Assembly: GCA_902794075.1 (NCBI GenBank)
Contig: CADBGE010000001.1
Location: 208,137-272,136 of the forward strand
Direction of reading: 5' to 3'
DNA length: 64,000 nucleotides
DNA from: an uncultured Erysipelotrichaceae bacterium
GTDB taxonomy: Bacteria > Bacillota_I > Bacilli_A > RF39 > UBA660
Shown: piece by piece, positions 11,401-62,755 of the stretch
Layout of the letters: every line of letters starts with the position of its first letter
Numbering within the stretch: the first letter of the stretch is position 1
The notes under the pieces: generated by a model
What the model was told of the DNA's origin: nothing
Databases searched by the model: none
What the model saw: only the letters and a program-made list of their open reading frames with translations
Made by a program: the position numbers and the translations under genes

Positions 11401-11885
11401 CTGTTTTATCTGATGATGCTTATTACATGAGGCCTCCAAAGAATACATTATGTCAATTAGTTGGAATCAATGCAGATAATATAACATATTGGAATATTAT
11501 TGAGACACCATTAGCAGAACAAAAAATACCAGATACAATTCTTGAGCATTATGATTGTACAGATGATGTAATTTTATTTGCATATAACTTAGGAGATTAT
11601 TATACTAAAAATAATAATGGAAATGATGTTAAAATAAGTTATTTATGCACACGAGCAGATGATTATGATGGTTTTCTGCCAATACGTAGAGTTACCTTTG
11701 AAGGCGGAAACGGAACTGATGCGGACGATGTTTGGGTAGAATATACTTTTTTAACATATTTACAAAGTGATTCATCTAAACATACTACTAATGGCGCATA
11801 TGCTAATTTGGGTTTTTTGAGATATGTTAAGGATGAGTATAAGTCTTGGCGACCAGAAGGAGAATCAGTAAATCCAAATTCATAA
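2418..11885 (+). CDS. Giant (3155 aa) repeat-containing virion protein, putative tail fibre / adhesin
   Basis: Single uninterrupted ORF. About 10 iterations of W(S/T)xP...G(E/A)DG.DG.GVEYIY(Y/A): short collagen-like Gly-X-Y runs followed by an EYIY strand, e.g. YGENGIDGDGVEYIYAV, YGEDGVDGDGVEYIYYL, GADGQPGKDGDDLEFIYHV. The C-terminal region resembles fibre tips. Confidence 0.8.
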   Translation: MAKTEDKSNKLYGTGVGENNITPTTNNLTNIGSKITSLNPGDEYAMIDAFNIDWESGEYKYSDDSDDIIHSTGHFVEIVKQKAAEGGADVWDDIKVSNYITSQIIIYATSNVKTPPECDFSGEPININNYDKQVYANLPEGWVESLDNVESNYYVFQTSVYEVRTLNNERIGYHEPIGEVIYLLGENGINGNFKSTVFCRTNETPVAPKQGAYYNTGLPSDIKVYRDNNSSQESEISNAEWSDGIPEGQEILWASTAIISDNNGSEDETAVWTTPRQMTDTATYDVEFSPYSNSNNTAPLTLPSDNDNENGNRHNTSLSRNQRWFDLTLDNELRNGISNVDENGQIPISGGNKPTWKSMIWRAERECINGVWSNWTISRIKGEQGTAGIKGDFKSTVFKRSENMPDRPSDNDGTYNNPVPSGWSDGIPNGIGPVWSTWRTFSVNDNNSSWTTPTLVADTPTYDVEFSQLQSEYGNPTDNPNNWFDPTKDTLPEDITWEDMIWRAERNRATSQDEWSEWVITKIKGEDGTIGLNSPYFEQRWGVFDKTITPTAPDNNAITLNTDHTTWKLTPQYTPGKNTWMTARKVIYTINNNEQSAQYDEDSTWSTPMRMSGVDGVSQPIQPVLKYQWTASNIVTPQLDQNGNTENPGNAWKEAPGNPTSTNKYLWMIQGQRQNGSMITWDANSDETVGTNEYWTSPVCLSGADGQPGKDGDDLEFIYHVYDEVPAFSNDNNNPAYWEVSSQDNYLGPENNKWNNNPTGVTITDKYEYCSYRRKTGNPKAWTKFSMPFPWSIYGENGIDGDGVEYIYAVTPTDTAPTQPEITSDNYTSSQQSEWGVDENINGVIWHDDPQQLNNENQKYQWVSVRKYRYPKQNETLGGNALDHNKKYWFNYSTPQLWNWYINNGTNAPRIVMAYKRTSSNDISSLYSVGTTDILYPNDGHIWISGEHSYDQNWCESPGNNTQDTGDEFLWMIQAYYTNVENNVRANGGTFNKYTLEGSWSTPICLTGEPGHEGEDGSDIEFIYYRTADDNKVPTVPDSENFEDGQYNESDWPFVNLKRTHDEITNSSVFDSTITKDGIKYLINDNKYDILEDETIYNSYSDNFTQIPSDMLHDVWTDNPLGVTSTYDYEYAAVRRKPAGSNSQWGEFSPVFLWSKYGEDGVDGDGVEYIYYLSSDENEVTFDALSETSNNSSNNPANWEISQNPEYIANNGWTDDPSGVSIDNRWEYVSVRHKRFDAESNTTTWGKYSEPSLWAHFAVDGLATNLVLESDNDNITVGITSEGTINNNYSDSVNFTLVFNTRPLNLDTDYTLKILTEPTPSGESNYNPFGTKTDTTIPFNNDLFQGNFASLTNNTLTVNIPEGFDMSQYDYIMSITLEAKIIRNDIDGLEIDTPAIFTLKISGVELSINDIYKLNIDRQVIKLDPNDQKYDTLNISLKSLTSVNSITENSEATDKHLYIRYNISERNNIDPDGNLINVNNYYIPIGDYTPDKHYNKHTFRLYYILDDSFFDEPRFDYKLTDNVLNAHGAVLLDTETISAVWDGANGNPGTDSKSQEYIYFVTDDISYFESGNHANINPNNWDTHENVIINNVSYYAYLTDDFPFVNGQTTYLGWEDTHIGISEEHPYQFMSTREYNTTTKEWGKFSSPECSHNWGHSGEDGDGVEYIYYLNDSATFNGDKPQTWYNDTNYQNSEYIKTNTNWTDNPSGVSENKKYEWISVRKYKYECPSDILWNAILKEGIYNVDEWQKFENDFNINSYNTKQAFTSKYEEEGSPISFQDVGNDNSNIKQFLEDNHAFSDGNPFWEAIKYVYKLFRTYDELENVFNHTKNKIWSQYSEPTLWAKYGGKGATGDTGGSGLTFDFDNPSIQIAVNSNGKIKDYQEVTTYLNVYEGASKISAKDITLSIISNGTHDAFEHSYSDTDKYGYTLFNSNSSNNGTSTYYTWKIGDVDIDNIGNNNIVQLTENSSIEFNISYKGNDYVKRVSLVPIKYGEDGANAVVFDLYCPTSVIHYNAMDNTPSFNPTTISDIKVRKIENSNVEYKITEGNNENENGFSISYYMEFPLATSQATGGNAGEIGGSIVRPKSSPQMAAKNISGYIYNETLDINDKINNALNDDKNYDIPKTVKLSLYHTESDTTALWDETDLEIIYDGINGVDGRYEEYIYYCPQNSNQINWTTINDALNPTTWAANSTNKDNEKLSDVDDFIKSGQEENWYDHPTGVDETHVYEYFAHRTFNKTTGKWNIYDTVGIWSHWGSDGKDGDGVEYIYAVGNNSDWKTAIGWSDGAIQNADRDPRRWILFKGGNQSTLSTIAWNDNYQTTEYHRTDSNFSTVWEDDPIKNLSEGYYQFCSTRKYKLLTQEYVNNITISTLQSEFGFISIESTQEKLNTVKSILSSYIGQKIWLPYSEPTIWSSNIPGQPGQKGADAVVLDWTNDQINLAVDENGKIYNGVPQYKSTTLKLLNSGNDLTITDLNCYGDNDYFEINLTNSAGGEGDTIEVNDKINIYSSYSESDKDFTINISIASNFNEDITIPENGLEVTFTVTLSNSKTLTKVLKICGQHIPSDGINGQNAVTYELDVTPNSLSYSSFSPNVNVTINVLKYNGTSVTRLSTSEDFGANNIYFTTSFYDITFEHTVVDTYNQSNSKSIPKTFRGRDIYNTGYVVIKMYYKNDGTYIQIDSETIPVICDGEQGAQGFTGPVVRNCGEYSHSRKYGNGNYNKSNAGPQYDETSILYKDIVSYTNRIGTKFYTPSTSTTYITETNNTYLCKGSAYIVGTYPAPPNTNSINTGWTVATQFDFIATKLLYADQALINQISTHDLIATNKDGYPVAGVTSGSKMYDKNNNEITSYLSTLGTVNYSENAVSSQNDPSNVRIFAGEIWDGNNSYSLTYAPFNVRQDGTAYMSKAIIEGTVTASNLKLKENVNANTLDQKGSFTYWDILNGDRYVPNLNEGEVGLYYILSIYGNSNSNIHIKTPYPGNGIPRNAFFKKSINGKSVLSDDAYYMRPPKNTLCQLVGINADNITYWNIIETPLAEQKIPDTILEHYDCTDDVILFAYNLGDYYTKNNNGNDVKISYLCTRADDYDGFLPIRRVTFEGGNGTDADDVWVEYTFLTYLQSDSSKHTTNGAYANLGFLRYVKDEYKSWRPEGESVNPNS

Positions 11886-13323: not shown

Positions 13324-13773
13324 TCATTTAATGAACATTTTTCTTATGTCATCAGGTATTTTTGGCGATCCTTTAAATATATTATTTGTCATACATCCTT
13401 TAGAAAGTTTCCATTTCATAATCCCATCAAGATCCTCAAGTTCAGGACATAAAGAAAACATATTGACCATGTTAAAAATATTTGAAATATCCCATGTATC
13501 AAGTCCAATTATTTGTTCAAGATTTGGACAATTACAGAACATATATTTTGTTTCTGTAAACATAGATGTGTTCCATCCTGTTACATTTATAATTTTAGAT
13601 TCATTTGTTAAGAATTGAAAATCCATTTCTTCAAAGGATCTGTCATTTTCAAAATATATGTCACTTAAATCTAAAATACCATTTTCTGTTGTTCTTTCTT
13701 TAACTATTTTTTGAAATTCAATTTTATTCTTTACACATGTAACACTTTTATAATCTTTATTTATCTTAATCAT
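13324..13773 (-). CDS. DUF285 / BspA-like repeat protein (149 aa)
   Basis: Contains the W-D-(V/I)-S-N...MF..C..(L/F)-x repeat signature (GWNTSMF...MFCNCPNLEQ...LDTWDISNIFNMVNMFSLCPELE), typical of DUF285 surface-protein repeats. Confidence 0.6.
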   Translation of the reverse strand: MIKINKDYKSVTCVKNKIEFQKIVKERTTENGILDLSDIYFENDRSFEEMDFQFLTNESKIINVTGWNTSMFTETKYMFCNCPNLEQIIGLDTWDISNIFNMVNMFSLCPELEDLDGIMKWKLSKGCMTNNIFKGSPKIPDDIRKMFIK

Positions 13774-13787
13774 TCATTTGCCATATT

Positions 13788-14303
13788 TTATTTGTCATAT
13801 TCACATGAATCATATTTGAAAACTATATCTGTGTCATTATATGAATTACTTTCATATGCATTAAAGATTTTGTCTAATGTTTCATCGATATTATCTTCTT
13901 CCTCAATCATTAGTTCAAACTTTGAAAACATCATTTTAAATCTTAGTTTTGTCAATCTAAAAGTAACAATTTTTGATTCATCAGGTGCATCTTTTCCAAG
14001 ATTATCGTCATATATTATATCAACAATGTCTTTCTTATAATCAAGTCTTTGAAAACTATCATATTCAAAATAAGCATCATTAATATATTTTACATTATTT
14101 CTAAAATACTTCTTAGCAATGTCTTGATTACTTGGCATCTGTTCTAATAATAGATCATCTATATATTGATGAATGTCATCTTCTTGAAAAGTCTCAGGAC
14201 AGTTAATAAGAATTTCATCTTTATTGCAGTTATATGTAACTTCAAGATTATTTATTGATTTCTGTTCAAATGCTTCTTTTAAATATGTAACTAAGTTTTT
14301 CAT
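13788..14303 (-). CDS. Hypothetical protein with CTS-like N-terminus (MKNLVTYLKE)
   Basis: ATG-start ORF of 171 aa. N-terminal decapeptide matches the MK.L..Y(I/L).E family signature. Confidence 0.6.
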   Translation of the reverse strand: MKNLVTYLKEAFEQKSINNLEVTYNCNKDEILINCPETFQEDDIHQYIDDLLLEQMPSNQDIAKKYFRNNVKYINDAYFEYDSFQRLDYKKDIVDIIYDDNLGKDAPDESKIVTFRLTKLRFKMMFSKFELMIEEEDNIDETLDKIFNAYESNSYNDTDIVFKYDSCEYDK

Positions 14304-45576: not shown

Positions 45577-46650
45577 TCATTTATGTTCTTTACGAATTTT
45601 TTCAAGCAATTTTCTTTCTTCTTTATTGATTGATGTAGGCATGATTACATTTATTATATATCTATATTCATATCCATTTATTGTACCTCCATATATGTTC
45701 GCTTCATTTTGCGTGCATTCCTTTAACTTTAGATTAATTGTCTTTCCATTTGGAATTGTCATTTTCATTTCTTTACCAATAATTGCGTCATAATATGGAA
45801 CATCAATCTTTTCATATATTGTTCTTCCTTGTACAAGATATTTATTCTTATCATACTGATGAAGCAATATGACTTGTAAATCTCCAGTAGGTGCTCCAGG
45901 AGTCTTACTTTCACATCCTGCACCATTTATAACAAGTGTATGTCCATTTTGACATCCTTTAGGAATATTAATCGTTACACTATTTTCTTTACTAATTAGA
46001 CCTTCACCATGGCATTTTTTACATTTATTCTTAATGATTTTTCCAGTGGCGCCACAGTATTGGCATGGATGAGAATTCTGTACCATTCCAAATCCAGTTC
46101 TATGAATCTCTGTGATCATACCAGTTCCATGACAATGCGGGCAAGTATCAACTCCAGTACCACCAGTTCCGTTACAGTCAGTACATCTTACATTACGATT
46201 ATATTTAAATGTTTTTTCTCCACCGTCAAGAATCTCCTTAATTCCAATTCCAACTTGTATTCTCAAGTTCTGACCAGGTTCTGGTCCTCTTGGTTGCTGT
46301 TGACGAGGTCTTCCACTGCCTCCAAAGAAACGTTCGAATCCTCCTAAATCAAAATCATCAAAGAATGAACTGAAATGAGAGAACATATCCGCACCACCAG
46401 ACCAGCCTTGCCCATAATTGTCCATACTTCCGTATCGGTCATAATGCGCTCTCTTGTTAGCATCAGACAAGCATTCATATGCTTCCTGGACATCCTTGAA
46501 GTTTTCCTCAGCTTTCTTTTTCTCATCATCTGACTTTCCTGCCTGTCTATCCGGATGATACTTCAAACACATTTTCTTATACTGCTTCTTTAAGTCATCT
46601 TCTGTGAAGTTCTTATCAACTCCTAAAATTTTATAGTAGTCTTTAGCCAT
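45577..46650 (-). CDS. dnaJ: DnaJ (Hsp40) co-chaperone, full type I
   Basis: J domain with HPD (DYYKILGV...YHPDRQ). G/F-rich region. Four CxxCxGxG zinc-finger repeats (CTDCNGTG, CPHCHGTG, CQYCGATG, CKKCHGEG). C-terminal substrate-binding domains. Confidence 0.9.
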   Translation of the reverse strand: MAKDYYKILGVDKNFTEDDLKKQYKKMCLKYHPDRQAGKSDDEKKKAEENFKDVQEAYECLSDANKRAHYDRYGSMDNYGQGWSGGADMFSHFSSFFDDFDLGGFERFFGGSGRPRQQQPRGPEPGQNLRIQVGIGIKEILDGGEKTFKYNRNVRCTDCNGTGGTGVDTCPHCHGTGMITEIHRTGFGMVQNSHPCQYCGATGKIIKNKCKKCHGEGLISKENSVTINIPKGCQNGHTLVINGAGCESKTPGAPTGDLQVILLHQYDKNKYLVQGRTIYEKIDVPYYDAIIGKEMKMTIPNGKTINLKLKECTQNEANIYGGTINGYEYRYIINVIMPTSINKEERKLLEKIRKEHK

Positions 46651-46712: not shown

Positions 46713-47258
46713 TCAATCGTTATACAATATAATGATTTTAAATTTTTCTATATTGTCAACATCAAACTTTCCTCTCTTAAAAAGTGATCTTCCTATTATA
46801 TACATCAGCACATCATCATCTTTTATACGAATAAGCTGTACGTTGTTCTTTGATGCTCGAGAATTTGATTGAAACAACAATTCAGATAAATCTTCTTCAT
46901 TTGCAATAGTAATAATTTCTTTCAACATTTTATTCTTCCCATAATTGTCAGGGCGATACTTATGATACCATAATAATTTGATATGATCATATTCATTAAT
47001 GTTATTTATTATTTCATCAGCAAAATTAAGTAATCTATTGGTAACACCTCCATCTTTATCTGTGACCCATAGCCAGGTATATTGGATTGCATCTTTTGAA
47101 ACTTTCGCATCAATATTTTGCGGATCACACCATATTTTCTTTGCAAGTTCCAATAATTGACTTGCCGTATCTATGTAATCTTTGTTGATAATTAATTTTT
47201 CATCAAATCGTTTATTGATGATAAGACGTTCTTCTATATGCTGAGACAATGATTTCAT
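46713..47258 (-). CDS. Hypothetical protein with CTS-like N-terminus (MKSLSQHIEE)
   Basis: 181 aa. The N-terminus carries the family signature followed by the (E)KLIINK(D/N)(Y/F) second motif shared with 47255, 50630 and 54273. Confidence 0.6.
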   Translation of the reverse strand: MKSLSQHIEERLIINKRFDEKLIINKDYIDTASQLLELAKKIWCDPQNIDAKVSKDAIQYTWLWVTDKDGGVTNRLLNFADEIINNINEYDHIKLLWYHKYRPDNYGKNKMLKEIITIANEEDLSELLFQSNSRASKNNVQLIRIKDDDVLMYIIGRSLFKRGKFDVDNIEKFKIIILYND

Positions 47259-47950
47259 TTTTCTAGTACATCAAATATTTCTTTAGTATATTTATACATT
47301 TTTTCACATTCTTCATATATATCAAATATTTCTCTTAATGACTTTGGATGAACTGCTTTACCATTTGGTGTTTTTAACTTATTTTCACGAATGAATTTTC
47401 GTGCTTCCTTTGATGAATTGAACAGCATACCGTTAAACGTGGTATAAAAGCCATGTGCTGTTTTTCCTAAATTATTTATTCTTGATGATGTATCTATAAA
47501 ATTCCATTTTGCATAAAAACCGAACAAGTTATCAAGAAGATAATCGCCAAGTTTATCTTTTAATCTATATAAACCCCATATCCAATTGTCCATACCATAT
47601 CTGCTGTCATACGGTGAATCATTTAGATTTGTTTTGTTTTCTTTTTTAATGAATAAATGCGGTTCTCCATCAACATCATATACCTTATAAATGAACTTAT
47701 AAATCATTTTATTCTCTTCATAATATTGGTTCATTATATCTGCAACTGATGTAGATATTTTAGTTGTGTCTTTTAATGAATCTATATCAAATTCTTTAAA
47801 ATCTTTATTAACTATTAACTTTTCAGCAATATTTACATTTTGATGTAAAGCTTTGCTTTCAGCAATATTTACATTTTGATGTAAAGCTTTGCTTTCAGCA
47901 ATATATTTTTCAACAATATTTTCATTAATATATTTGACTAATGATTTCAT
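47255..47950 (-). CDS. Hypothetical protein with CTS-like N-terminus (MKSLVKYINE) and internal 12-aa duplication
   Basis: 231 aa. AESKALHQNVNI is repeated twice, encoded by a 36-bp DNA tandem repeat at 47822-47893. ATGA overlap with the downstream gene. Confidence 0.6.
   Translation of the reverse strand: MKSLVKYINENIVEKYIAESKALHQNVNIAESKALHQNVNIAEKLIVNKDFKEFDIDSLKDTTKISTSVADIMNQYYEENKMIYKFIYKVYDVDGEPHLFIKKENKTNLNDSPYDSRYGMDNWIWGLYRLKDKLGDYLLDNLFGFYAKWNFIDTSSRINNLGKTAHGFYTTFNGMLFNSSKEARKFIRENKLKTPNGKAVHPKSLREIFDIYEECEKMYKYTKEIFDVLEK
47822..47905. repeat. 36-bp in-frame tandem duplication (2.3 copies) inside CDS 47255-47950
   Basis: TTCAGCAATATTTACATTTTGATGTAAAGCTTTGCT occurs twice, plus a partial third copy. 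Confidence 0.8.
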
Positions 47951-48631: not shown

Positions 48632-50548
48632 TCATTTGACTTCCTCAGCTTGTACATCTTCAGCATCCTTGAATGGATTGTCTCCACCCATCTGAGCAAA
48701 TGGATTGCTCTGCGCTTGCTGAGACTGTTCACCTTGCTTTGGAGCAGATTCCTGATAGATTCTAGTGATGATTGGTTGATAGTAATCCTCAAGTGCCTTA
48801 CGAGCAGGCTCAATCTTCTCGAGATCCTTTGTCTGCAGTTGTTCATCAAATTCTTTCAGAAGTTCATTAATCTTCTCTTTCTCCTCATCAGTGAACTTGC
48901 TGCCCATGTGCTCATCCTTCAATGATGCTTCAACGGCATACTTATATCCTTCTGCAGTATTCAGCTTGTCAATCTCTTCTTTCTTTTTCTTGTCCTCTTC
49001 AGCATGATCTGCAGCATCTTTCTTGATACGGTCAATTTCTTCTTGAGATAGCGAATTGCCCTTCTCAATAGTGATGTGTTGTTCCTTTTGAGTACCAAGA
49101 TCCTTTGCAGTGACTGTCAAGATACCGTTAGCATCCATCTCAAATGTAACCTCAATCTGAGGAACGCCACGAGGAGCAGGAGCAATGCCGTCCAAGTTGA
49201 ATTGACCAATGATCTTATTGTCACGACTCATAGGACGCTCACCCTGAAGAACAATGATACTTACTGCAGGTTGGTTATCAACAGCAGTTGTGAATACTTG
49301 AGACTTACGAACAGGAATAGTTGTGTTTGCATCAATCAATTTACCCATCTGACTTCCGTTCACCTCGATACCGAGTGAGATAGGTGTTACATCAAGAAGA
49401 AGAACATCAGTGTCAGAAGTGTTGCCCACCAAGATGTTTGCCTGGATTGCAGCACCTTCAGCTACAGCAAGGTCAAGGTCAGCTTTATGAATTAATTCAA
49501 CACCGAACTTATCGGTAAGACGCTTCTGAAGAAGAGGAATACGGCAAGAACCACCAACCAAGATAATACCATCAAGAGTACAGTTTGCCTTTTCACGAGC
49601 ATCCTCAGCACACTTGATTACTTTATCTACATACTTGCTTGCGATATTCTCAAATGCTGCTTTGTTAAGTTTCTTAACAAAGTGTTTAGGCATACCGTCA
49701 ATTGCTGTAATATATGGTAGGTTAATTTCAGTCTCAGTAACTCCTGACAGTTCAATCTTTGCTTTCTCTGCAGCCTCAACTACACGTTGCATAGCCATAG
49801 GATCCTTGCTTAAGTCAAAATTCTCCTGTTTCTTGAACTCATCAACGATCCATTGTGCGACTGCATTGTCAATATCTGCACCACCAAGCCATGTATCGCC
49901 ATAACTTGAAAGTACTTCAATCAGTTGAGAATCTTTGTCATAATCAAGAACAGTTACATCTGTAGTGGAACCACCAAAATCCACAACAGCATACTTACCT
50001 GATTTCTCCAGTTTACTTGCAAGACATGCCGCAGTAGGCTCATTGATGATACGCAATACATTTAGACCAGCAAGTTCACCAGCCTCTTTAGTAGCATTAC
50101 GCTGTGAATCATCAAACAATGCAGGAACTGTAATGACAGCATCTTCGACGGAATGGCCAAGATATTCCTCAGCCTGCTTCTTTAGTTCTTGAAGAATCCA
50201 TGAACTGATTTCTTGTGGAGAATACTCCTTATCGTTAATCTTTACATAGGGATAGCCATTATGATTCACAACATCATAATGCAAGTGCTTGATAGCATCC
50301 TGAGCTTCTTCCCAGTTGCGTCCAATTAGTCTCTTAATTAAATTGATTGTTTGTTTAGGTTTCATCAACATTTGACGCTTTGCTGATGAGCCTACACGAC
50401 GCTCACCATTGTCATCGATGTTGACTACTGATGGAAATGTTTTAGAACCTTCTGCGGTAAGTACAATAGCCGGACGGCCGTTTTCCATCACACATACTTC
50501 CGACATTGTTGACCCAAGGTCAACACCAATTGCTTTCTTGTTGCTCAT
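48632..50548 (-). CDS. dnaK: Hsp70-family chaperone (divergent DnaK homolog)
   Basis: 638 aa. N-terminal phosphate-1 motif AIGVDLGSTMSEV (compare IGIDLGTTNS). DFGGSTTDVTVL (compare DLGGGTFD). ILVGGSCRIPLLQ (compare LVGGQTRMP). A substrate-binding domain and a charged C-terminal tail follow. Confidence 0.85.
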   Translation of the reverse strand: MSNKKAIGVDLGSTMSEVCVMENGRPAIVLTAEGSKTFPSVVNIDDNGERRVGSSAKRQMLMKPKQTINLIKRLIGRNWEEAQDAIKHLHYDVVNHNGYPYVKINDKEYSPQEISSWILQELKKQAEEYLGHSVEDAVITVPALFDDSQRNATKEAGELAGLNVLRIINEPTAACLASKLEKSGKYAVVDFGGSTTDVTVLDYDKDSQLIEVLSSYGDTWLGGADIDNAVAQWIVDEFKKQENFDLSKDPMAMQRVVEAAEKAKIELSGVTETEINLPYITAIDGMPKHFVKKLNKAAFENIASKYVDKVIKCAEDAREKANCTLDGIILVGGSCRIPLLQKRLTDKFGVELIHKADLDLAVAEGAAIQANILVGNTSDTDVLLLDVTPISLGIEVNGSQMGKLIDANTTIPVRKSQVFTTAVDNQPAVSIIVLQGERPMSRDNKIIGQFNLDGIAPAPRGVPQIEVTFEMDANGILTVTAKDLGTQKEQHITIEKGNSLSQEEIDRIKKDAADHAEEDKKKKEEIDKLNTAEGYKYAVEASLKDEHMGSKFTDEEKEKINELLKEFDEQLQTKDLEKIEPARKALEDYYQPIITRIYQESAPKQGEQSQQAQSNPFAQMGGDNPFKDAEDVQAEEVK

Positions 50549-50629: not shown

Positions 50630-51136
50630 TTAATGATGTATCTCATTAAAAATTTCTTTTAATGAATCAAATATTTCTTTGTCTATTATAAAATAATTTA
50701 CTGCTGTTCCAGGATATTCTAATGAGGACTTGTTAAATAATGATATGTTTTTTAATTGCTGTGCTTCTACATAACGAATTTGAACATCATTAATGTATCT
50801 AATTCGAATGTCATCATATAAATTTACATATTTGTCATGTCTTTGTAAACGATGAACTAAAAATAAATTTTGTATAACTTCATTAAAGCCACATACATAT
50901 TCACCTTCATTGGCAATGACATTCATCTTATTGAATGATATCTCTTTACCAGACCTTTTTATATAATTAATTATGTCTTTAAACGCATTTTTATCTTTTG
51001 TGTTAATTGTATATAAATGAGATGACCATGAATAGCTTCTTAAAGTATCTTCAAAACTTTCTGATTTGAAATTTTTGTTGATGACAAGTTTTTCATTAAA
51101 AAATGACTCATGCAAATGCTGTTTTAATGATTTCAT
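50630..51136 (-). CDS. Hypothetical protein with CTS-like N-terminus (MKSLKQHLHE)
   Basis: The ORF-track start at 51172 is a GTG that overlaps the upstream stop. The first ATG (51136) gives the family N-terminus MKSLKQHLHESFFNEKLVINKNF, so it was preferred. Confidence 0.55.
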   Translation of the reverse strand: MKSLKQHLHESFFNEKLVINKNFKSESFEDTLRSYSWSSHLYTINTKDKNAFKDIINYIKRSGKEISFNKMNVIANEGEYVCGFNEVIQNLFLVHRLQRHDKYVNLYDDIRIRYINDVQIRYVEAQQLKNISLFNKSSLEYPGTAVNYFIIDKEIFDSLKEIFNEIHH

Positions 51137-51168: not shown

Positions 51169-51597
51169 TCACTTCATTTGCCTTATAATTTCAATAACTT
51201 TACTACCATCTGCTGCAGGATATTTATCTTTCACATATCCCATGATGTGCTTCATGTTTTGTGGCTTAGGTTCATAACCACTATCAATGATTGCTTGCTT
51301 CAATTCATCTTGACTAGGAACCTTAGGCAAGAAACTTTGAAGAATATTCAATCGTTCAGTTAGTTCTGTGACATCCCTATTTGCTTTAATGAACATATCT
51401 CTCTCATCCTGCCATGACTTTTCCATCTTCATAAGAATTGAGATCTCTTTTGCGTCATTGAAATCACTTTTCTTGAATCCCTTGCTTGTCTTATATTCAA
51501 GAAATTTTGCCTTAATCATTTTCAGTACATAAAGACGATTTGCATCTTTTGACTTCATCGCGTCTGCAATTTCCTTATTAATGTTCTCTCTAAGCAT
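51169..51597 (-). CDS. GatB/YqeY-domain protein
   Basis: 142 aa. MLRENINKEIADAMKSKDANRLYVLKMIKAKFLEY... resembles the YqeY/GatB C-terminal domain family. Confidence 0.55.
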   Translation of the reverse strand: MLRENINKEIADAMKSKDANRLYVLKMIKAKFLEYKTSKGFKKSDFNDAKEISILMKMEKSWQDERDMFIKANRDVTELTERLNILQSFLPKVPSQDELKQAIIDSGYEPKPQNMKHIMGYVKDKYPAADGSKVIEIIRQMK

Positions 51598-51623
51598 AAT
51601 TTTAATTATTTTTTTTTAATTTA

Positions 51624-51809
51624 TTAATTACAACGTACCGCTGTATCACATAATGTTGCCTTTTCAATATGAAGCAAGTTCTTGTAATAACTATTTTCAA
51701 TATATTGTTCACATGCTTCTTTATCGGTTGTCCAATGAGTTTCTGCACTCTTGTAATTATAATTATCAATGCATACAACACGATAAATTTCTTGAATTGT
51801 AAATGTCAT
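51624..51809 (-). CDS. Hypothetical small Cys-containing protein (61 aa)
   Basis: ATG ORF directly downstream of rtcB. Confidence 0.4.
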   Translation of the reverse strand: MTFTIQEIYRVVCIDNYNYKSAETHWTTDKEACEQYIENSYYKNLLHIEKATLCDTAVRCN

Positions 51810-51813
51810 AATT

Positions 51814-53034
51814 TTAATTATTTGCTTTAAAATTGTAAAGTGGTTTAATTTGCTTGATAATATCTACTGTATCACCAATTGCATTGATAATTGATTCCAT
51901 AGGCTTATATGCCATAGGTGCTTCATCAATAGTATCAGTGTTGACTGAAGTAGTATAAATACCCTTCATAGAATTTTTGAAATCTTCCATGTTCAATTCA
52001 GCTTTTGCCTTAGAACGACTCATTATACGACCTGCTCCATGAGGTGCAGAATAATTCCAATCCGCATTACCCCTACCAACACAAATCAATGAACCATCTC
52101 TCATGTTCATGGTGATAATCAAATTTTCACCATCCGCCGCAGAAACAGCTCCTTTACGAAGCATCATATATTCATCAATATAATTATGAGTAGTAAATAT
52201 ATGTTCATCGAATTTCCAATTCATATATTTACCAATTACCTGACAAATAGTTTCATGATTTATATATGCGAATTGTGAACACTTCCACATATCATTAATG
52301 TAACCTGAAAAATCATCGCCATCGAGATTCTTATCAAGATATGCCATTTCATTAGAAACTGCAGGGCGTTTAATTTTCTTAAGTTCTGACTGAATCTCCT
52401 TTTCACGTCCTTCTGCTTTCAAACGCTTAATAAGTTCATCAACTTCACCCTTCTTTGATGTTCTATTCTGAATTGCCTTAGTCTGCCAATACTTGCACAC
52501 TTCAACACCTAAATGACGAGAACCACAATGAATAAGAAGATATACTTCATTTGTCTCCTCGCACCATTCTACAGAAATAAAATGATTACCTCCGCCAAGT
52601 GTTCCTAAAGAATATAGTGTATATCTCTTATTAATTGGACATTTAATCTCGTCAAGAAAATTTACACATTGTTTTTGCATACTCGCAGGAACATCATCAA
52701 GTACATTACGAATATTGGTTCCTGAAGGAATATGCTCATGAATCACATTATCTAATTTTTCTTTAACAGTATCAAACCACTGCTTTCCATTTACCTTCTT
52801 AGGTAACTTAATGCGATGTGCTGATACGGTACATCCGATGTCGACGCCAACGAAATTAGGAGTAATCTTATCAGTAATCTGCATGGTTGTACCAACAGTA
52901 CAGCCTTTACCAGCATGGCAATCAGGCATCATACGAATAATGTTGTTCTTATATGCATCTGACTTAGCCATTGCATAAATCTGGTTCAGAGCCTCGGGCT
53001 CAACAATCTCTGCATATATCTTTAAAGTTTCCAT
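51814..53034 (-). CDS. rtcB: RtcB-family RNA 3'-phosphate/2',3'-cyclic phosphate ligase
   Basis: Signature motifs CHAGKGCTVG, GGGNHFISVEW and HGAGR (APHGAGRIMS) are present. 406 aa. Confidence 0.9.
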   Translation of the reverse strand: METLKIYAEIVEPEALNQIYAMAKSDAYKNNIIRMMPDCHAGKGCTVGTTMQITDKITPNFVGVDIGCTVSAHRIKLPKKVNGKQWFDTVKEKLDNVIHEHIPSGTNIRNVLDDVPASMQKQCVNFLDEIKCPINKRYTLYSLGTLGGGNHFISVEWCEETNEVYLLIHCGSRHLGVEVCKYWQTKAIQNRTSKKGEVDELIKRLKAEGREKEIQSELKKIKRPAVSNEMAYLDKNLDGDDFSGYINDMWKCSQFAYINHETICQVIGKYMNWKFDEHIFTTHNYIDEYMMLRKGAVSAADGENLIITMNMRDGSLICVGRGNADWNYSAPHGAGRIMSRSKAKAELNMEDFKNSMKGIYTTSVNTDTIDEAPMAYKPMESIINAIGDTVDIIKQIKPLYNFKANN

Positions 53035-53925: not shown

Positions 53926-54276
53926 TTATGATTCTAATTTTTCCAATGCGTCAGGCCCTTCATATTCATAATCACCCCATAAATCATTTTCATCAACCCA
54001 ATTCAAAAAATTAATTAATGGAATAATGTCATCTTTTATATTATTTCTATTTATGACTGGCCAATTATTTGTATCATCAAGAACATCATATAGATCGTTC
54101 ATTTGTTGTTTTTCTTCATCAGATAATACATTCCAATATTCAGAATACTTTTTTATTTCAGAATCTTCACCAATATTTCCTGTTAATAGACCGACCAAGG
54201 ATGCTATAGCGTCTCTTTCACTTTCTGTTAGTTTAAAATATCTTGTTTCATTTATATAAGTTATTAATGATTTCAT
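53926..54276 (-). CDS. Hypothetical acidic protein with CTS-like N-terminus (MKSLITYINE)
   Basis: 116 aa. Last gene of a 3-gene overlapping MKSL array. Confidence 0.6.
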   Translation of the reverse strand: MKSLITYINETRYFKLTESERDAIASLVGLLTGNIGEDSEIKKYSEYWNVLSDEEKQQMNDLYDVLDDTNNWPVINRNNIKDDIIPLINFLNWVDENDLWGDYEYEGPDALEKLES

Positions 54277-55073
54277 TCTACTCCTTTTGGTTTATATTTA
54301 TTTACTATATTGCAATTACTGAACATTTTGTCCGTTTTTGCTGTATCTTTAATTTTCCATTTACTTAAGTTACAATTAAAATTTTCGCACCATCCAAACA
54401 TCCAAGAAAAATTCTCTCCTTTACTAACATTCCATTTACTTAAATCATAATTAAATTTTGAACAACCATAAAACATTGAATCAAAGTTTGTTGAATTACT
54501 TACATCCCATTTACTTAAATCTGAATTGAAATTTGGGCAGTTAAAGAACATTTTTTTAAAAGTCTGGCCGTTTCTAACATTCCATTTTCTTAAATCGCCA
54601 TTAAATTTTATACAGTCTTCAAACATCCAATAAAAAAATTCTCCATTACTTACATCCCATTCGCTTAAGTTTTGATTAAATTTTTTACATTCATAAAACA
54701 TTGCTCCAAAATTCTCTCCATTGCGAACATCCCAATTGCTTAAGTCGCAATTGAATTTTTTACACCCATAAAACATATAATAAAAATCCTTACCATTACT
54801 TACATCCCATTTACTAATATCAAAATCTTTATTTCCGGTATTTTTATCTTGTAGAAACAATTTGCTAAAATCAGTTATTTCGGATACGTCTATATCATTT
54901 AAGTCATATATGCCTTTATTATAATGTTCACGTATTGCTAATTCTAATTCATTTCTGTCTTTTGGGTGATAATTATAAATGTCACTATAATTTTTATTAA
55001 TGACAAGTTTTTCATCTACTTGTGATGGAATAATGATAAGTTTTTCAGATATGTAATTTATTAATGACTTCAT
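54273..55073 (-). CDS. DUF285 / BspA-like repeat protein with CTS-like N-terminus (MKSLINYISE)
   Basis: About 7 tandem 23-aa repeats SKWDVSNG..F..MF..C.KFN.DL. The N-terminus has the family motif plus EKLVINKNY. Confidence 0.7.
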   Translation of the reverse strand: MKSLINYISEKLIIIPSQVDEKLVINKNYSDIYNYHPKDRNELELAIREHYNKGIYDLNDIDVSEITDFSKLFLQDKNTGNKDFDISKWDVSNGKDFYYMFYGCKKFNCDLSNWDVRNGENFGAMFYECKKFNQNLSEWDVSNGEFFYWMFEDCIKFNGDLRKWNVRNGQTFKKMFFNCPNFNSDLSKWDVSNSTNFDSMFYGCSKFNYDLSKWNVSKGENFSWMFGWCENFNCNLSKWKIKDTAKTDKMFSNCNIVNKYKPKGVE

Positions 55074-55453
55074 TTCATAAAATTAAATTTTTTTCTATTA
55101 AAAACTACAATACCAATATTATCATTAAGTATTGTATCATAATTATATATCTCACGATCATCATCAACATTAACTATAATTCCGTTATCTGAACTTTCAT
55201 ATTTATATATATTTGATGTATCAACAATATTATAATATGAAGAATCTGTTTCAATAATTTTACAGATTACATATTCATTGTCATTACCAAATTCTTTATT
55301 TTCTAATTTATTAAATATTCTTTTAATGCTATTTTCATTTTCAATAGCAATTCCTAAAACAATATTATCTGGTATTCTATTACCACTTTCTGAACATTTA
55401 AGTCTGAATGGTGCTGGGCCGCGTTCATTAATGTATTCTACTAAACTTTTCAT
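55070..55453 (-). CDS. Hypothetical protein with CTS-like N-terminus (MKSLVEYINE)
   Basis: The ORF-track start at 55495 adds 14 AT-rich codons. The internal ATG at 55453 gives a near-consensus family N-terminus, so it was preferred. Confidence 0.55.
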   Translation of the reverse strand: MKSLVEYINERGPAPFRLKCSESGNRIPDNIVLGIAIENENSIKRIFNKLENKEFGNDNEYVICKIIETDSSYYNIVDTSNIYKYESSDNGIIVNVDDDREIYNYDTILNDNIGIVVFNRKKFNFMK

Positions 55454-55550: not shown

Positions 55551-56372
55551 ATGAGAACTACAGTAAAACTAAATAGTAAGGGCGAAGATGTAAAGTATCT
55601 TCAGAAGCTTCTTGGTTTGACAGCTGATGGAGCTTTTGGTCCAAAGACAGACTCTGCAGTAAAAAAGTTCCAGAAAGATCATAGTCTTGTTGCTGACGGT
55701 ATAGTCGGAGCAAAGACGTGGGCAGAACTTGAGAAACTAAACGCGTCAAAGCCCGCTGTTTCAACAGTTAATTCAAAGCAAGTTGACCCATCAGTAATAT
55801 ATGCACCTCTTAAATGCTGCTTATCAAAACTTGCGAATAGACAAATCAAATACATAGCAATTCATTACACTGCAGGTGGAAGTTCTACACCAGGCCGTGC
55901 AATCAGCATGAAGAATTCTTGGGAGAACACAAAGAGAGCTTCAGCGGACTTTGGTGTTGATGACAGAGACATAGTCCAATTCAACCCAGATCCTAAGAAC
56001 TATTATTGCTGGTCAGTCGGTGACAAGAAGGCAGCTCATGTAAATGTTCCTGATGGACGAAATAGTAACACAATAAATATTGAGATATGTTCAAATCTTA
56101 GAAAAGGAACAAGTGCAGCAGTACCAAATCATGAAGGTTGGTACTATACAGACAAGGCAATTGAGAATGCAATCAAGTTAACGAAGATCCTGATGAAGAA
56201 GTATAATATTCCTGTTGAAAGAGTCGTTCGTCATTATGACATCAGTGGTAAACTTTGCCCGGGTATCATTGGTTGGAATGATGGTCAACTATACGACACA
56301 AATGGAAAGTTATTAGTAGGAAAAAGAAACAATAGTAATAAATGGAAAAAATTTAAGAATAAGCTGAAATGA
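55551..56372 (+). CDS. Endolysin: N-terminal peptidoglycan-binding domain + N-acetylmuramoyl-L-alanine amidase (Amidase_2/PGRP)
   Basis: PG_binding_1-like LGLTADGAFGPKTDSAVKKFQKDHSLVADGIVGAKTW. Amidase_2 features IAIHYTAGG...RVVRHYDISGKLCPG. Confidence 0.85.
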   Translation: MRTTVKLNSKGEDVKYLQKLLGLTADGAFGPKTDSAVKKFQKDHSLVADGIVGAKTWAELEKLNASKPAVSTVNSKQVDPSVIYAPLKCCLSKLANRQIKYIAIHYTAGGSSTPGRAISMKNSWENTKRASADFGVDDRDIVQFNPDPKNYYCWSVGDKKAAHVNVPDGRNSNTINIEICSNLRKGTSAAVPNHEGWYYTDKAIENAIKLTKILMKKYNIPVERVVRHYDISGKLCPGIIGWNDGQLYDTNGKLLVGKRNNSNKWKKFKNKLK

Positions 56373-58032: not shown

Positions 58033-58773
58033 TTAAAATGATTTTACAAATTTAATAAGTTCAGCAGGAATATTGTGATATGTGAATATTGCTTCCTCTT
58101 CTTTCATTGCAGTATCTTTATATATTGGAATATTGTGAACATGGTTAAAATCAATTTTTAATACTGAAATATTATCATTGCAATTTAATATCTTATCACA
58201 AAAATCTTTTACTTTATCGGTTAATTTTCCATTGTTAAATATTCTTTCATTTGTTTTATATAAGAAAATACGTTCAGGAAAATTACGATATTTTGCCTTT
58301 TTACATCTTAGCCCATTCTTTAATATACTCTCCACATTTTTTGTATATGTAAAATGATAACAAATATTATGATATTCATTTAAATCAACAGTTTTAGAGT
58401 ATGTTGGTTCAATGAATAATAACTTTGTTTTAATATCAACACCAGACAAATAATACCCATAAAATTCTAAAATTCTTTTGAATTTTTTGTCGTTTGATAA
58501 ATATATGTAATTTGATTTATTTACCTTTATTGTGAATGAGCCATTATCATAATCATCAAATTCTATTTCATATTCATTATTGAATTCTTGAAATAACTTT
58601 GATTTTAGTTTTTCAACATCATGTGAATTTAAAGCTTCAAGAATATAATCAATGTTTGCGTCAATATTATTGGGATCTAAATCTTCATTAAAAAAATCAC
58701 ATAATGATTCATAGTATTGTCTCCACCAAAATTTCTTTGAACTTTCATTAATAAATTCTTTTAATGTTTTCAT
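58033..58773 (-). CDS. ADP-ribosyltransferase-fold (Tpt1/PARP-like) protein with CTS-like N-terminus (MKTLKEFINE)
   Basis: Paralog of 61847-62755 (ILEFYGYYLSG...HNICYHFTYTKNVESILKNGLRCKKAKYRNFPERIFLY versus IIEFYGYYISG...HNICYHFTDNKSAESILKNGLRCKSGSYREYPERIYLY). H-x-T...GL...R pattern. Confidence 0.55.
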   Translation of the reverse strand: MKTLKEFINESSKKFWWRQYYESLCDFFNEDLDPNNIDANIDYILEALNSHDVEKLKSKLFQEFNNEYEIEFDDYDNGSFTIKVNKSNYIYLSNDKKFKRILEFYGYYLSGVDIKTKLLFIEPTYSKTVDLNEYHNICYHFTYTKNVESILKNGLRCKKAKYRNFPERIFLYKTNERIFNNGKLTDKVKDFCDKILNCNDNISVLKIDFNHVHNIPIYKDTAMKEEEAIFTYHNIPAELIKFVKSF

Positions 58774-59983: not shown

Positions 59984-60568
59984 TCAAAATTTACTTCTAT
60001 ATTTTTCTAATAATTCTTCAATATTATTTTTAATTTCTGGATATCGGCACCTCAGTCTCCATCTAAACTTCAGTTCATCATTCATACGAATTGCATTGAC
60101 TACTTCAACACCGTTCAATATATCAACGCATATTTTAGCATCACGTTCTGTGATTCCCTCATAAGTATCTGTCTGAACAAAATTGAACAACTGATAATCA
60201 CACATATCGGAATCATCATCAAGAATTACATAACTATCCACTTCAGGATGTTCATTCATATAGAATCTGATTTCATCACCACGCAATCCGCCAATGCTTT
60301 CCGTCATTCCAATAATGTTGTTAATGAACTTGTCAAACTCTTTTTTAAAGTGATCTAAATATTGGTTCTTGATGAAGTACTGTTTCAAAGATTCATGAAA
60401 AGCAGACACAACATTAGCATAACCAATTCTCCAAGAAGATGTAACAACAATCTTTGCATCCGTTTTGTCGCAGATATCATTGATTATCTTAACATTATTC
60501 ATATCAATCTTCCACCGTGTATTAAGTGTGGTTATCACACCATCAAAATCAAGAAATAGTATTTTCAT
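59984..60568 (-). CDS. HAD-superfamily phosphatase (polynucleotide 3'-phosphatase / nucleotidase-like)
   Basis: HAD motif I ILFLDFDGVITT (DxDGV), motif II IVVTSSW, motif IV VILDDDSD. Confidence 0.6.
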   Translation of the reverse strand: MKILFLDFDGVITTLNTRWKIDMNNVKIINDICDKTDAKIVVTSSWRIGYANVVSAFHESLKQYFIKNQYLDHFKKEFDKFINNIIGMTESIGGLRGDEIRFYMNEHPEVDSYVILDDDSDMCDYQLFNFVQTDTYEGITERDAKICVDILNGVEVVNAIRMNDELKFRWRLRCRYPEIKNNIEELLEKYRSKF

Positions 60569-60592: not shown

Positions 60593-61567
60593 TTATACCT
60601 TATATTTTTCTAATCGTTTAACATCAAACAATATGTCATTTGAATTAATATATAAAGTTGTGTTCTTTCGTCTTTTTAATAATAAATCACAAACAATTTT
60701 TGGTAATAACTGATTGAATTTTTTATAAAACTTATTCCATGCATTTGTAAATTCTTTTCTTAATTTACTAAATGTTACGTTCTTGTTCCATTCTTTATTA
60801 TATGCATCAACAAAATGTTTCTTATCATCTTCGGACATTGAATTCATTTTCACAATAAATGTTCCACAATCAAAATATATTTTCCACACCCCAGATTTTT
60901 GTAATTTTTCCCTAAATTTTGTATAATCAAAATGCGTGATGTTATATTGGTCAAGTAATTTATCGCATGTTTCTTCAAGCTGTCCAAAATATGCTCGTTG
61001 TTCCTTGTCATTCAAGAAATATTTACATTGGCCGAGTATTCTATATTCATATATATTAGATTTAACATTTCTAAATGCCTTAATATATTCATCTGAAAAA
61101 TAATCAAATATTGATGGTTCTCCATTATTGATTCTATTTATATCCTCATAGGCATGCATAAGCTCATGAAGAAGAGCACTTTTTATTTCCCATTCATTTG
61201 GAATTCCATTATTTATGTATAAATCAAATTCAACAACATTATTCTTTATTCCTTTGTAACTGCCATAAACATATTTGTCAGTTATAACGTGTAAATTTAT
61301 TTTTTTGAAAAATATGTTAAATTTGCTACAATCAATTAATATTTCATAATCTTTATTTTCTTTATATCTTTCGTTTTCAAATATTCCATAATATGATATA
61401 AAATCAATAAGATCTTTATAGTTTGAAAAATGTCCAAGTTCTTCATTTATCATCCCATAAAAATCATTGTAGTTCGCAAATAATTCAATGTTTATATGTT
61501 CTTTAAGAATGTTGAATAATTTATCCTCAAAATTCTTTGATATTATATGTTCTTTAAAATTTTTCAT
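60593..61567 (-). CDS. Putative zinc metallopeptidase with HExxH motif (SprT/Wss1- or ImmA-like)
   Basis: ALLHELMHAY at about residue 135 of 324 aa. N-terminus MKNFKEHIIS loosely resembles the family leader. Confidence 0.45.
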   Translation of the reverse strand: MKNFKEHIISKNFEDKLFNILKEHINIELFANYNDFYGMINEELGHFSNYKDLIDFISYYGIFENERYKENKDYEILIDCSKFNIFFKKINLHVITDKYVYGSYKGIKNNVVEFDLYINNGIPNEWEIKSALLHELMHAYEDINRINNGEPSIFDYFSDEYIKAFRNVKSNIYEYRILGQCKYFLNDKEQRAYFGQLEETCDKLLDQYNITHFDYTKFREKLQKSGVWKIYFDCGTFIVKMNSMSEDDKKHFVDAYNKEWNKNVTFSKLRKEFTNAWNKFYKKFNQLLPKIVCDLLLKRRKNTTLYINSNDILFDVKRLEKYKV

Positions 61568-61846: not shown

Positions 61847-62755
61847 TCATCTTATATAAATTTTTGCTATGCATTCCGCAGGAATATTAGTATATGTGAA
61901 TACACTCTTGTTATCATCTATCATCATTGTGTCTCTATATACAGAAACACCAATATGATTCAAATCAATTTTCAATACAGCTAACCCGTATTTGTGTATC
62001 ATATTGTGATCGCAGATTATGTCAACCATATTTTTGATGTCTGTTCTTAAGTGCATGTTCTTGTCAGTAACATATAAATCACAATATAGATATATACGCT
62101 CAGGATATTCCCTATAACTTCCTGACTTACATCTCAACCCATTCTTAAGTATACTTTCAGCTGATTTATTGTCCGTAAAATGATAGCATATATTGTGTGA
62201 TTTAGTCAATATGTCGTCAGCATTTTTTGAATATTTTGGCTCAATTGTGAGTATTATTGCTGCTTGTTTATCAACAGTAAGTATATAATCTTTTAAATTA
62301 TGTATCTTATCTAATTTGAATATTGATATGTCTCCTAAACCATTTTTACCATATATTCCTGAGATGTAATATCCATAAAACTCAATGATTGATAAAAATT
62401 TCTTGCCTTTTATTATGTTGGCTAATTCATCATCATACTTTAGTATAATTTCAAATGAATCAATTGTTTCATCATCGTTGTTTTTCTCAATACTTATGAG
62501 TGAACTTCCTAAAAATTCATGAAGCTTCTTACTGATTTTAGAAAAATCATGAGAATTTAATGTCTCAAGTATAAAATCAAATCCTGATGAATTATTGAAT
62601 GTTTTGTAATAATTCGCAACATCATCAATCAGATTATCAGGACATGTATCATCAATTGATTCTCCATAAAAATTGATTATGTCATTTCTGATTAAGCTTC
62701 CTTTCTGTATTGGAACATATTTGTTAGTTCTTATATATTCTGTAAACCTTTTCAT
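61847..62755 (-). CDS. ADP-ribosyltransferase-fold (Tpt1/PARP-like) protein, paralog of 58033-58773
   Basis: See 58033-58773. N-terminus MKRFTEYIRT is a leader variant. 302 aa. Confidence 0.55.
   Translation of the reverse strand: MKRFTEYIRTNKYVPIQKGSLIRNDIINFYGESIDDTCPDNLIDDVANYYKTFNNSSGFDFILETLNSHDFSKISKKLHEFLGSSLISIEKNNDDETIDSFEIILKYDDELANIIKGKKFLSIIEFYGYYISGIYGKNGLGDISIFKLDKIHNLKDYILTVDKQAAIILTIEPKYSKNADDILTKSHNICYHFTDNKSAESILKNGLRCKSGSYREYPERIYLYCDLYVTDKNMHLRTDIKNMVDIICDHNMIHKYGLAVLKIDLNHIGVSVYRDTMMIDDNKSVFTYTNIPAECIAKIYIR

Follow-up and report, generated by a model that had tools for sequence, protein, structure and literature searches.

RtcB, YqeY, HAD phosphatase and Tpt1-like genes share a megaphage region without forming a conserved RNA-repair module

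Phage RNA repair is a recognised counter to tRNA-cleaving immunity, and in phage T4 the anticodon nuclease PrrC is countered by heal-and-seal tRNA repair with Pnkp and Rnl1. A broader repertoire was described in jumbo phages by Iyer, Anantharaman, Krishnan, Burroughs and Aravind (2021; PMC7824862). It comprises RtcB, Rnl1/Rnl2, PNK-HAD, standalone 'Swiss-army-knife' (SAK) HAD proteins and KptA ADP-ribosyltransferases (ARTs), and in it HAD phosphatases and other healing enzymes track ATP-grasp ligases and polynucleotide kinases. The standard reading of phage genes for RtcB, SAK-HAD and KptA, one with support in the literature, is RNA repair that counters tRNA-cleaving defence (PMC7824862). Here, a stretch of 64,000 nucleotides (64 kb, referred to throughout as the window) is analysed, in which an RtcB RNA ligase gene lies beside a gene for a YqeY/GatB-domain protein, with a HAD-type phosphatase gene and two Tpt1-like paralogs nearby. 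The initial annotation proposed that these genes form an RNA-repair set, the equivalent of T4 Pnkp/Rnl1, directed against tRNA-cleaving defences of the host. The gene calls stand, and an RNA/tRNA-maintenance theme is a reasonable one for the region; the single T4-equivalent set is not supported, since RtcB, YqeY, HAD and the Tpt1-like genes do not stay together as a conserved module and their chemistry speaks against one shared pathway.

Exact-protein look-ups found identical proteins on the 400,026-bp metagenomic contig ena:ERZ27280413:k141_844548 and near-identical copies on other contigs of 0.2-1 Mb, and the window DNA is therefore assigned to a megaphage; its base composition (~30% G+C) is that of AT-rich phage DNA. 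A megablast search of the 12-kb region against a phage collection returned zero matches. The best explanation, to which we give about an even chance as a whole, is that the region is an accessory, host-interaction part of a ~400-kb Bacteroidales-infecting megaphage of gut or rumen with T4-like head genes, and that its RNA/tRNA-related genes act independently rather than as one pathway. RtcB, SAK-HAD and KptA genes of giant phages had already been described (in 2021), and to these the locus adds a Bacteroidales megaphage example. All described open reading frames (ORFs) are present on the minus strand, and those at issue are as follows.

51814..53034, minus strand: RtcB RNA ligase, 406 amino acids (PF01139, PHROG 1075)
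51169..51597, minus strand: standalone YqeY, 142 amino acids (PF09424, PDB 1NG6)
59984..60568, minus strand: HAD_SAK_2 phosphatase, 194 amino acids, standalone and without a C1 cap (PF18143)
58033..58773, minus strand: Tpt1/KptA-fold paralog A, 246 amino acids (Foldseek match to TkoKptA 9ld4; leader MKTLKEFINE)
61847..62755, minus strand: Tpt1/KptA-fold paralog B, 302 amino acids (40% identity to paralog A)

The ligase, called in the initial annotation from its CHAGKG, GGNHF and HGAGR motifs, is a bona fide RtcB. It matches Pfam PF01139 at E 8.4e-57 (score 193.7 bits, cutoff 27; residues 32-403, profile positions 14-425 of 426) and PHROG 1075 'tRNA splicing ligase' at E 3e-121, and the three motifs are located at C39-H-A-G-K-G44, G148-G-N-H151-F and H332-G-A-G-R336. 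All six catalytic residues are intact, including those for metal binding on which the call had been made to depend: D65, C68, H151, H169, H283 and H332 do not vary when the protein is aligned with four phage RtcBs, and they line up with the metal-binding and nucleophile motifs of the solved Thermus thermophilus and human enzymes. In RtcB enzymes the Asp/Cys/His/His/His set binds metal, and the His of HGAGR is the nucleophile that becomes guanylylated. Its identity to the RtcBs of phages of Bacillus and Bacteroides is 47-49%, and RtcB is present in 651 phage records. Like the enzymes of Bacillus Herelleviridae phages, mycobacteriophages and Bacteroides phage BS-TP1, it is a protein of ~400 amino acids of the same family that retains the catalytic residues, and like their loci its own has no archease or RtcA alongside. 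It does not reach NCBIfam NF007153, the E. coli-type RtcB equivalog (129.6 bits against a cutoff of 407), and by these profile scores it belongs to the family without being an equivalog of the RtcB on the E. coli chromosome. It is almost certainly active as an RNA ligase. It would act as a stand-alone sealing ligase that, in a GTP- and Mn2+-dependent reaction with a His332-GMP intermediate, joins an end carrying a 3'-phosphate or a 2',3'-cyclic phosphate to one carrying a 5'-OH, and it most likely reseals tRNAs or other translation RNAs that have been cut by metal-independent host RNases. Counter-defence repair is the most plausible role for such an enzyme; no experiment showing that a phage RtcB counters host defence was found in the literature searched.

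The association of RtcB with the other genes is not conserved beyond close relatives. No YqeY or HAD gene was found within ~10 kb of RtcB at four other-phage loci (Bacteroides phage BS-TP1, a Bacillus phage and two IMG/VR contigs), so that, unlike the window, none of the four compared loci (0/4) pairs RtcB with YqeY. When 38 phage YqeY loci were clustered at 70% identity into 13 lineages, RtcB lay within 10 kb of YqeY in only one of them, that of this window; HAD_SAK_2 was fused to YqeY or within 10 kb of it in 4/13, tRNA genes were within ~4 kb in 5/13, and DnaK/DnaJ within 8 kb in 3/13. RtcB is no longer near YqeY in a phage homologue at 65% identity. In a relative of the HAD protein that is 72% identical (L056), a Tpt1-like paralog (83% identical to A) follows the HAD gene and a 17-tRNA array precedes it; no RtcB or YqeY lies within 10 kb there, and only the HAD-Tpt1-like pairing persists.

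Partners that a T4-type pathway would bring with it were also sought in the window plus 20 kb of flanking DNA, that is, in ~84 kb of the ~400-kb genome. No homologues of T4 Pnkp, Rnl1 or Rnl2 were found there by tblastn at E up to 1, nor, with Pfam searches included, any polynucleotide kinase, ATP-grasp/ATP-dependent ligase, archease or RtcA; RlaP was not found, and the proposed check for tRNA genes and archease found neither. The likeness to the jumbo-phage repertoire is that a very large phage again encodes RtcB together with KptA/Tpt1-fold proteins and a SAK-family HAD that stands alone; the differences are the lack of ATP-grasp ligase, kinase, RlaP and tRNA from the stretch searched, the divergence of the KptA-like proteins, one of which carries a leader, and the presence of YqeY, which the survey does not mention (PMC7824862). 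The likeness to T4 extends to the proposed purpose, the restoring of tRNAs after cleavage by a host RNase, and to the presence of a HAD-type phosphatase. The chemistry differs: RtcB seals 3'-phosphate and 5'-OH ends directly with GTP, with no kinase-phosphatase healing. RtcB acts on 3'-phosphate or 2',3'-cyclic phosphate with 5'-OH, and ATP-grasp ligases on 3'-OH with 5'-phosphate. Since RtcB needs the 3'-phosphate, a 3'-phosphatase would work against it. The RNA/tRNA-related genes of the region probably act independently of one another, and co-located genes of this RNA-repair flavour in giant phages should not be read as a pathway before conservation and end chemistry have been checked.

From 63 to 45.5 kb, the minus-strand order is paralog B, a 324-amino-acid ORF, HAD, three small ORFs, paralog A, ~10 orphan ORFs, RtcB, an ORF of 61 amino acids (ORF61), YqeY, an ORF of 168 amino acids (ORF168), DnaK, three ORFs and DnaJ. 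RtcB, YqeY, HAD and the Tpt1-like genes all fall within 11.6 kb on one strand, with HAD 7 kb from RtcB and separated from it by ~15 unrelated ORFs and an opposite-strand endolysin. The genes that surround the main ones are listed below.

51624..51809, minus strand: ORF61, 61 amino acids, no family match; called as a gene in all related contigs (L006-L011)
50630..51136, minus strand: ORF168, 168 amino acids, with a T4-capsid-targeting-like N-terminus MKSLKQHLHE (motif scan; gene call in relatives)
48632..50548, minus strand: DnaK (Hsp70; Pfam HSP70 match on the identical gene in L006)
45577..46650, minus strand: DnaJ (precomputed Pfam DnaJ, DnaJ_C and DnaJ_CXXCXGXG matches)
55551-56372, plus strand: endolysin, PG_binding_1 and Amidase_2; the sole plus-strand gene in the minus-strand block between RtcB and HAD

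At the RtcB end, the spacing is operon-like. RtcB, ORF61, YqeY, ORF168 and DnaK are co-directional and tightly packed, with gaps of 4-81 nt; ORF61 begins 4 nt past the RtcB stop codon, YqeY follows RtcB across a gap of 220 nt, and the order RtcB-ORF61-YqeY-ORF168-DnaK is kept in all close relatives (≥87% identity). ORF61 has zero Pfam, PHROG or NCBIfam matches and ORF168 zero Pfam or PHROG family matches. No terminator-like site lies between RtcB and YqeY, a promoter/terminator scan around the pair performed no better than on shuffled sequence, and no RNA family in Rfam matched the window at gathering thresholds. A 14-nt sequence, TAATTAAAATTATG, was considered as a shared upstream motif (51595-51608 and 51807-51820, minus strand, ending at the YqeY and ORF61 start codons) and was dropped: it has two copies only in the window, and since two or more matches also turn up in 13 of 100 shuffled sequences, this is not significant.

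The protein encoded beside RtcB was correctly named as a YqeY/GatB-domain protein. It matches PF09424 at E 4.1e-19 (score 69.5 bits, cutoff 27; the match spans positions 2-141 of the 143 in the profile) and Bacillus subtilis YqeY (PDB 1NG6) at E 9e-9 over residues 2-138. Apart from copies of itself, it is closest, at 55-60% identity, to genes on the chromosomes of Muribaculaceae/Prevotellaceae metagenome-assembled genomes from rumen and gut, and since the nearest genes are chromosomal Bacteroidales ones, this placement indicates that the phage YqeY was captured from the host lineage. It shares with bacterial YqeY the full-length PF09424 domain; the bacterial gene sits by rpsU, in rpsU-yqeY operons, whereas that of the window is phage-encoded and sits by RtcB and DnaK. 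Experiments have shown that the YqeY-type domain raises tRNA affinity in Deinococcus radiodurans GlnRS, in cis only (PMC1865053); it also forms the D-loop-binding, tRNA-binding tail of GatB (PMC2811023). Standalone YqeY is uncharacterised and co-regulated with the ribosomal protein bS21 (PMC13374519), and in phage pf16 a YqeY-motif protein lies beside tRNA clusters (PMC5587285); no paper in the literature searched names YqeY together with RtcB. In the window, DnaK and DnaJ of the phage lie near YqeY in the same orientation. A DnaK of 47% identity lies 5.8 kb from YqeY in an unrelated phage (locus L016), and DnaJ is also near YqeY in L024 and L016. The DnaK, DnaJ and IF-1-like protein of the megaphage are a host-like set of proteostasis and translation genes, and YqeY is probably part of a translation-support set with them, with a predicted role in handling tRNA; its position just downstream of RtcB would fit a tRNA theme, the adjacency itself being lineage-specific. 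The IF-1-like gene lies just outside the window (L020:2043-2270). In L016, a distant relative, an FtsH-like protease, DnaK, DnaJ and IF-3 stand in a row (L016:13797-18004).

Two recurrent settings indicate that the placement of YqeY in phages is not random, namely tRNA arrays and fusion to a HAD_SAK_2 domain. The loci in question are these.

L023:9666-10586, YqeY by or in a tRNA array (between tRNA-Met and tRNA-Val, inside a 22-tRNA array)
L095:3635-4278, YqeY by or in a tRNA array (tRNA gene 141 nt from YqeY)
L027:8096-10426, YqeY by or in a tRNA array
L016:7564-10055, YqeY by or in a tRNA array
L025:10001-14757, YqeY by or in a tRNA array
L005:11902-12807, equal to MT835470.1 29901-30806, HAD_SAK_2-YqeY fusion (also in L028-L051)

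The fusion is a single ORF of 301 amino acids on the 117-kb human-gut phage scaffold MT835470.1, with matches to HAD_SAK_2 (8e-27) and YqeY (8e-21), and proteins built in the same way, 60-99% identical, are found on contigs of 90-185 kb. It is the strongest evidence for any functional link within the set, and it links YqeY to HAD, not to RtcB. MT835470.1 has no RtcB, Tpt1-like gene or tRNA gene in its 117 kb; a T4-type Pnkp homologue is present (E 1.7e-16). If YqeY assists an enzyme in the window, HAD would be the better candidate: with YqeY holding the body of the tRNA, a phosphate at its end would be taken off by the cap-less HAD. The recurrence of YqeY, fused to a predicted RNA-end phosphatase and inside tRNA arrays, offers a testable lead to the function of the family. 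On the YqeY-bearing viral contig L027, ARAGORN reports a tRNA with a CUA anticodon, labelled tRNA-Pyl (L027:1707-1782), which may be an amber suppressor indicating stop-codon recoding in that phage.

Among the other explanations, the one that survives best, though unlikely, is that the genes are together by coincidence, in a hypervariable accessory zone like the internal-protein loci of T4, with no functional link between RtcB, YqeY and HAD and with YqeY as a generic host-derived translation factor. The neighbours of YqeY and HAD do differ greatly between relatives, many of the surrounding ORFs are orphans with a shared capsid-targeting-like leader, YqeY comes from the host, and the co-regulation of cellular YqeY with bS21 points to general translation (PMC13374519). 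Against this stand the HAD-YqeY fusion, the repeated association of YqeY with tRNA arrays, and the RtcB-ORF61-YqeY spacing that all close relatives keep. The profile scores are far beyond chance; the clustering of the genes may be due to chance.

The HAD-type phosphatase of the initial annotation is likewise genuine, and the question of its class, whether an RNA-repair phosphatase or a dNMP nucleotidase, is answered in favour of the SAK RNA-repair HAD family. It matches PF18143 (HAD_SAK_2) at E 1.3e-21 (77.8 bits against a cutoff of 27.5) over the whole profile (1-139 of 139), and all four motifs, D7-x-D9-G-V, S44, R96-G97 and D117-D118, are conserved across 41 homologues, with D9 and R96-G97 invariant and D7, S44 and D117-D118 above 90%. 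The family was reportedly defined by Burroughs and Aravind in 2016 in Nucleic Acids Research (NAR). A search gave 785 homologues, and the 120 listed all carry PF18143 and are essentially standalone (one has a second domain). The AlphaFold model, with a predicted local distance difference test score (pLDDT) of 95.1, is a small Rossmannoid core; a large C1 cap, as HAD nucleotidases acting on small molecules typically have, is missing. The genes next to its relatives vary and include DNA methylases, Metallophos, GmrSD, NUDIX and Tpt1-like genes; its viral structural neighbours are all uncharacterised. An association with RNA ligase and kinase, on which the RNA-repair name of PF18143 is based, was not encountered in the window or flanks.

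It is improbable, and slightly more so than coincidence, that the genes make up one coordinated tRNA-repair pathway equivalent to T4 Pnkp/Rnl1, in which YqeY would recruit the broken tRNA, HAD and Tpt1 would clean its ends and RtcB would seal it. In its favour, each of the four gene types is genuine and they lie together on one strand, the jumbo-phage survey counts RtcB, SAK-HAD and KptA among the RNA-repair components (PMC7824862), YqeY-type domains bind tRNA, and the fusion shows cooperation between HAD and YqeY in a phage that also has a T4-type Pnkp. Against it, a 3'-phosphatase would remove the very phosphate that RtcB requires, and the ATP-grasp ligases and kinases with which HAD phosphatases go (PMC7824862) are missing from the window and flanks; RtcB is near YqeY in a single lineage of the 13, and the phage with the fusion has no RtcB in 117 kb; the proximity of RtcB and HAD is gone in the 72%-identical relative; and unrelated ORFs and the endolysin part the two gene groups. 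It is established chemistry, moreover, that RtcB junctions have no 2'-phosphate for Tpt1 to remove, and the Tpt1-like family is sub-threshold in Pfam and appears to lack the first catalytic Arg, with a capsid-targeting-like leader on one paralog.

That Tpt1-like paralogs fall in the window, as had been claimed, is borne out by their two-lobed Tpt1/KptA fold. Paralogs A and B are 40% identical over 242 amino acids (E 2e-42) and share one family profile, the family comprising 406 representative clusters. The score of paralog A against Pfam Tpt1 (PF01885) is 17.2 bits, below the cutoff of 26, and two of 102 family members match PF01885 at E < 0.01. The AlphaFold model (pLDDT 93.7), by contrast with these profile scores, has KptA/Tpt1 proteins as all of its top 18 Foldseek matches in the PDB, the best being TkoKptA 9ld4 (E 3.4e-6, probability 1.0, ~214 aligned columns, template-modelling (TM) score on the target 0.48); the next fold match is DarT, at E 0.027. 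Tpt1/KptA catalysis depends on an Arg-His-Arg-Arg tetrad. The profile alignment to E. coli KptA covers 28 residues only, at the NAD-site motif YH[GF]T..GL, and the tetrad was therefore compared by eye: LRH corresponds to N-[ST]-H, so that H51 is kept and the first Arg is replaced by Ser/Thr, and ERHYVHL corresponds to ERIFLY, with R168 kept; the third Arg was not located.

The second unusual property of paralog A is its leader, MKTLKEFINE, which equals the T4 capsid-targeting sequence (CTS) MKTYQEFIAE at 7 of 10 positions. In T4, the CTS marks hypervariable, injected anti-defence proteins (PMC8442874, PMC3012670); these internal proteins and Alt are packaged in the capsid and share only the N-terminal CTS. 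A motif scan found that at least eight otherwise unrelated minus-strand ORFs of the window and two ORFs of the flanks start with MK[ST]L..[YFH]I.E.

13788-14303, minus strand: leader ORF
46713-47258, minus strand: leader ORF
47255-47950, minus strand: leader ORF
50630-51136, minus strand: leader ORF (ORF168)
53926-54276, minus strand: leader ORF
54273-55073, minus strand: leader ORF
55070-55453, minus strand: leader ORF
58033-58773, minus strand: leader ORF (paralog A)
60593-61567: looser leader match
61847-62755, minus strand: looser leader match (paralog B)
L020:6684-7334: leader ORF in the flank
L020:8104-8706: leader ORF in the flank

The shared leader suggests a bank of virion-packaged effectors, a Tpt1-fold protein among them, and its occurrence on so many ORFs would mean that this gut megaphage holds a store of effectors for injection. 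Like T4 Alt, paralog A combines a CTS-like leader with a predicted ADP-ribosyltransferase-superfamily fold, and given this T4-like leader it is probably packaged in the virion and injected. The apparent loss of the first Arg together with the leader suggests an injected NAD-using effector, not a repair enzyme, and the Tpt1-like paralogs look more like T4 Alt-like injected effectors than RNA-repair 2'-phosphotransferases; HAD travels with a paralog of this fold. A relative encodes a T4-type portal, and no homologue of the T4-type gp21 protease was detected in the stretches examined. Unlike the T4 CTS proteins, RtcB, YqeY and HAD of the window have no leader; a candidate leader on RtcB was rejected, as its N-terminus belongs to the conserved RtcB fold. 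A homologue of paralog A, P0161 (372 amino acids), has a C-terminal Tad6 domain (type I Thoeris inhibitor; Pfam E 7e-28), and this fusion hints that the Tpt1-like family works in counter-defence against nicotinamide adenine dinucleotide (NAD)/ADP-ribose (ADPR) signals.

Several points weigh against our preferred reading of independent RNA/tRNA genes. In the fusion lineage, the neighbours of HAD-YqeY serve NAD salvage, not RNA repair. Foldseek returned no significant match between the HAD model and a solved structure (best E 0.026), and its weak, non-significant neighbours are CTDNEP1, TIM50 and T4 Pnkp. The tight RtcB-YqeY spacing across relatives could reflect real co-function within this lineage. 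The cis-only action of the YqeY-type domain in GlnRS argues against a trans-acting helper for RtcB or for an unfused HAD (PMC1865053). Finally, Rnl, Pnkp, archease or tRNAs may sit in the remaining ~316 kb of the genome.

A further view, just as improbable as the single pathway, is that HAD and YqeY serve NAD+/nucleotide metabolism or NAD-depletion defence and not RNA repair. HAD would then be a phosphatase of small molecules, namely (mono)nucleotides, in partnership with enzymes of NAD salvage and NAD-consuming ART-fold enzymes, and RtcB an unrelated neighbour. In most fusion loci whose upstream sequence is long enough, a NAPRTase-NadE-NMNAT-NUDIX cluster precedes HAD-YqeY at a distance of 1-6 kb, and some gene calls in that lineage join YqeY to NAD-synthase or NAPRTase domains; HAD is flanked in the window by the two NAD-binding-fold paralogs, its L057 relative is 6 kb from a NUDIX gene, and there is the Tpt1-like member fused to Tad6. 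Set against these, Pfam places HAD in the SAK RNA-repair family, its want of a large C1 cap and its weak neighbours would, on general knowledge of the HAD superfamily, point to a macromolecular substrate, its fusion partner is a tRNA-binding-type domain that in phages goes with tRNA arrays, and HAD relatives also lie by DNA methylases and GmrSD, so that the context varies.

Least probable of all, by a little, is the idea that standalone YqeY is a portable tRNA-recognition module by which phages aim RNA-end-processing enzymes at tRNA, which may act in cis when fused to HAD_SAK_2 and in trans by RtcB or inside tRNA arrays, may help to strip blocking phosphates from defence-damaged tRNA ends (for example 3'-phosphorylated or pyrophosphorylated CCA ends), and would, if true, give the YqeY family its first biochemical role and tRNA repair a new accessory factor.

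Further features of the window lie apart from these genes. An ORF of 3,155 amino acids at 2418-11885, conserved on the source contig, has zero Pfam matches. The ORFs at 54273-55073 and 13324-13773 contain 'F(N/D)xDLSxWDVSN' units in repeats, with a DUF285 match at E 2e-12 in the latter and a capsid-targeting-like leader on the former.

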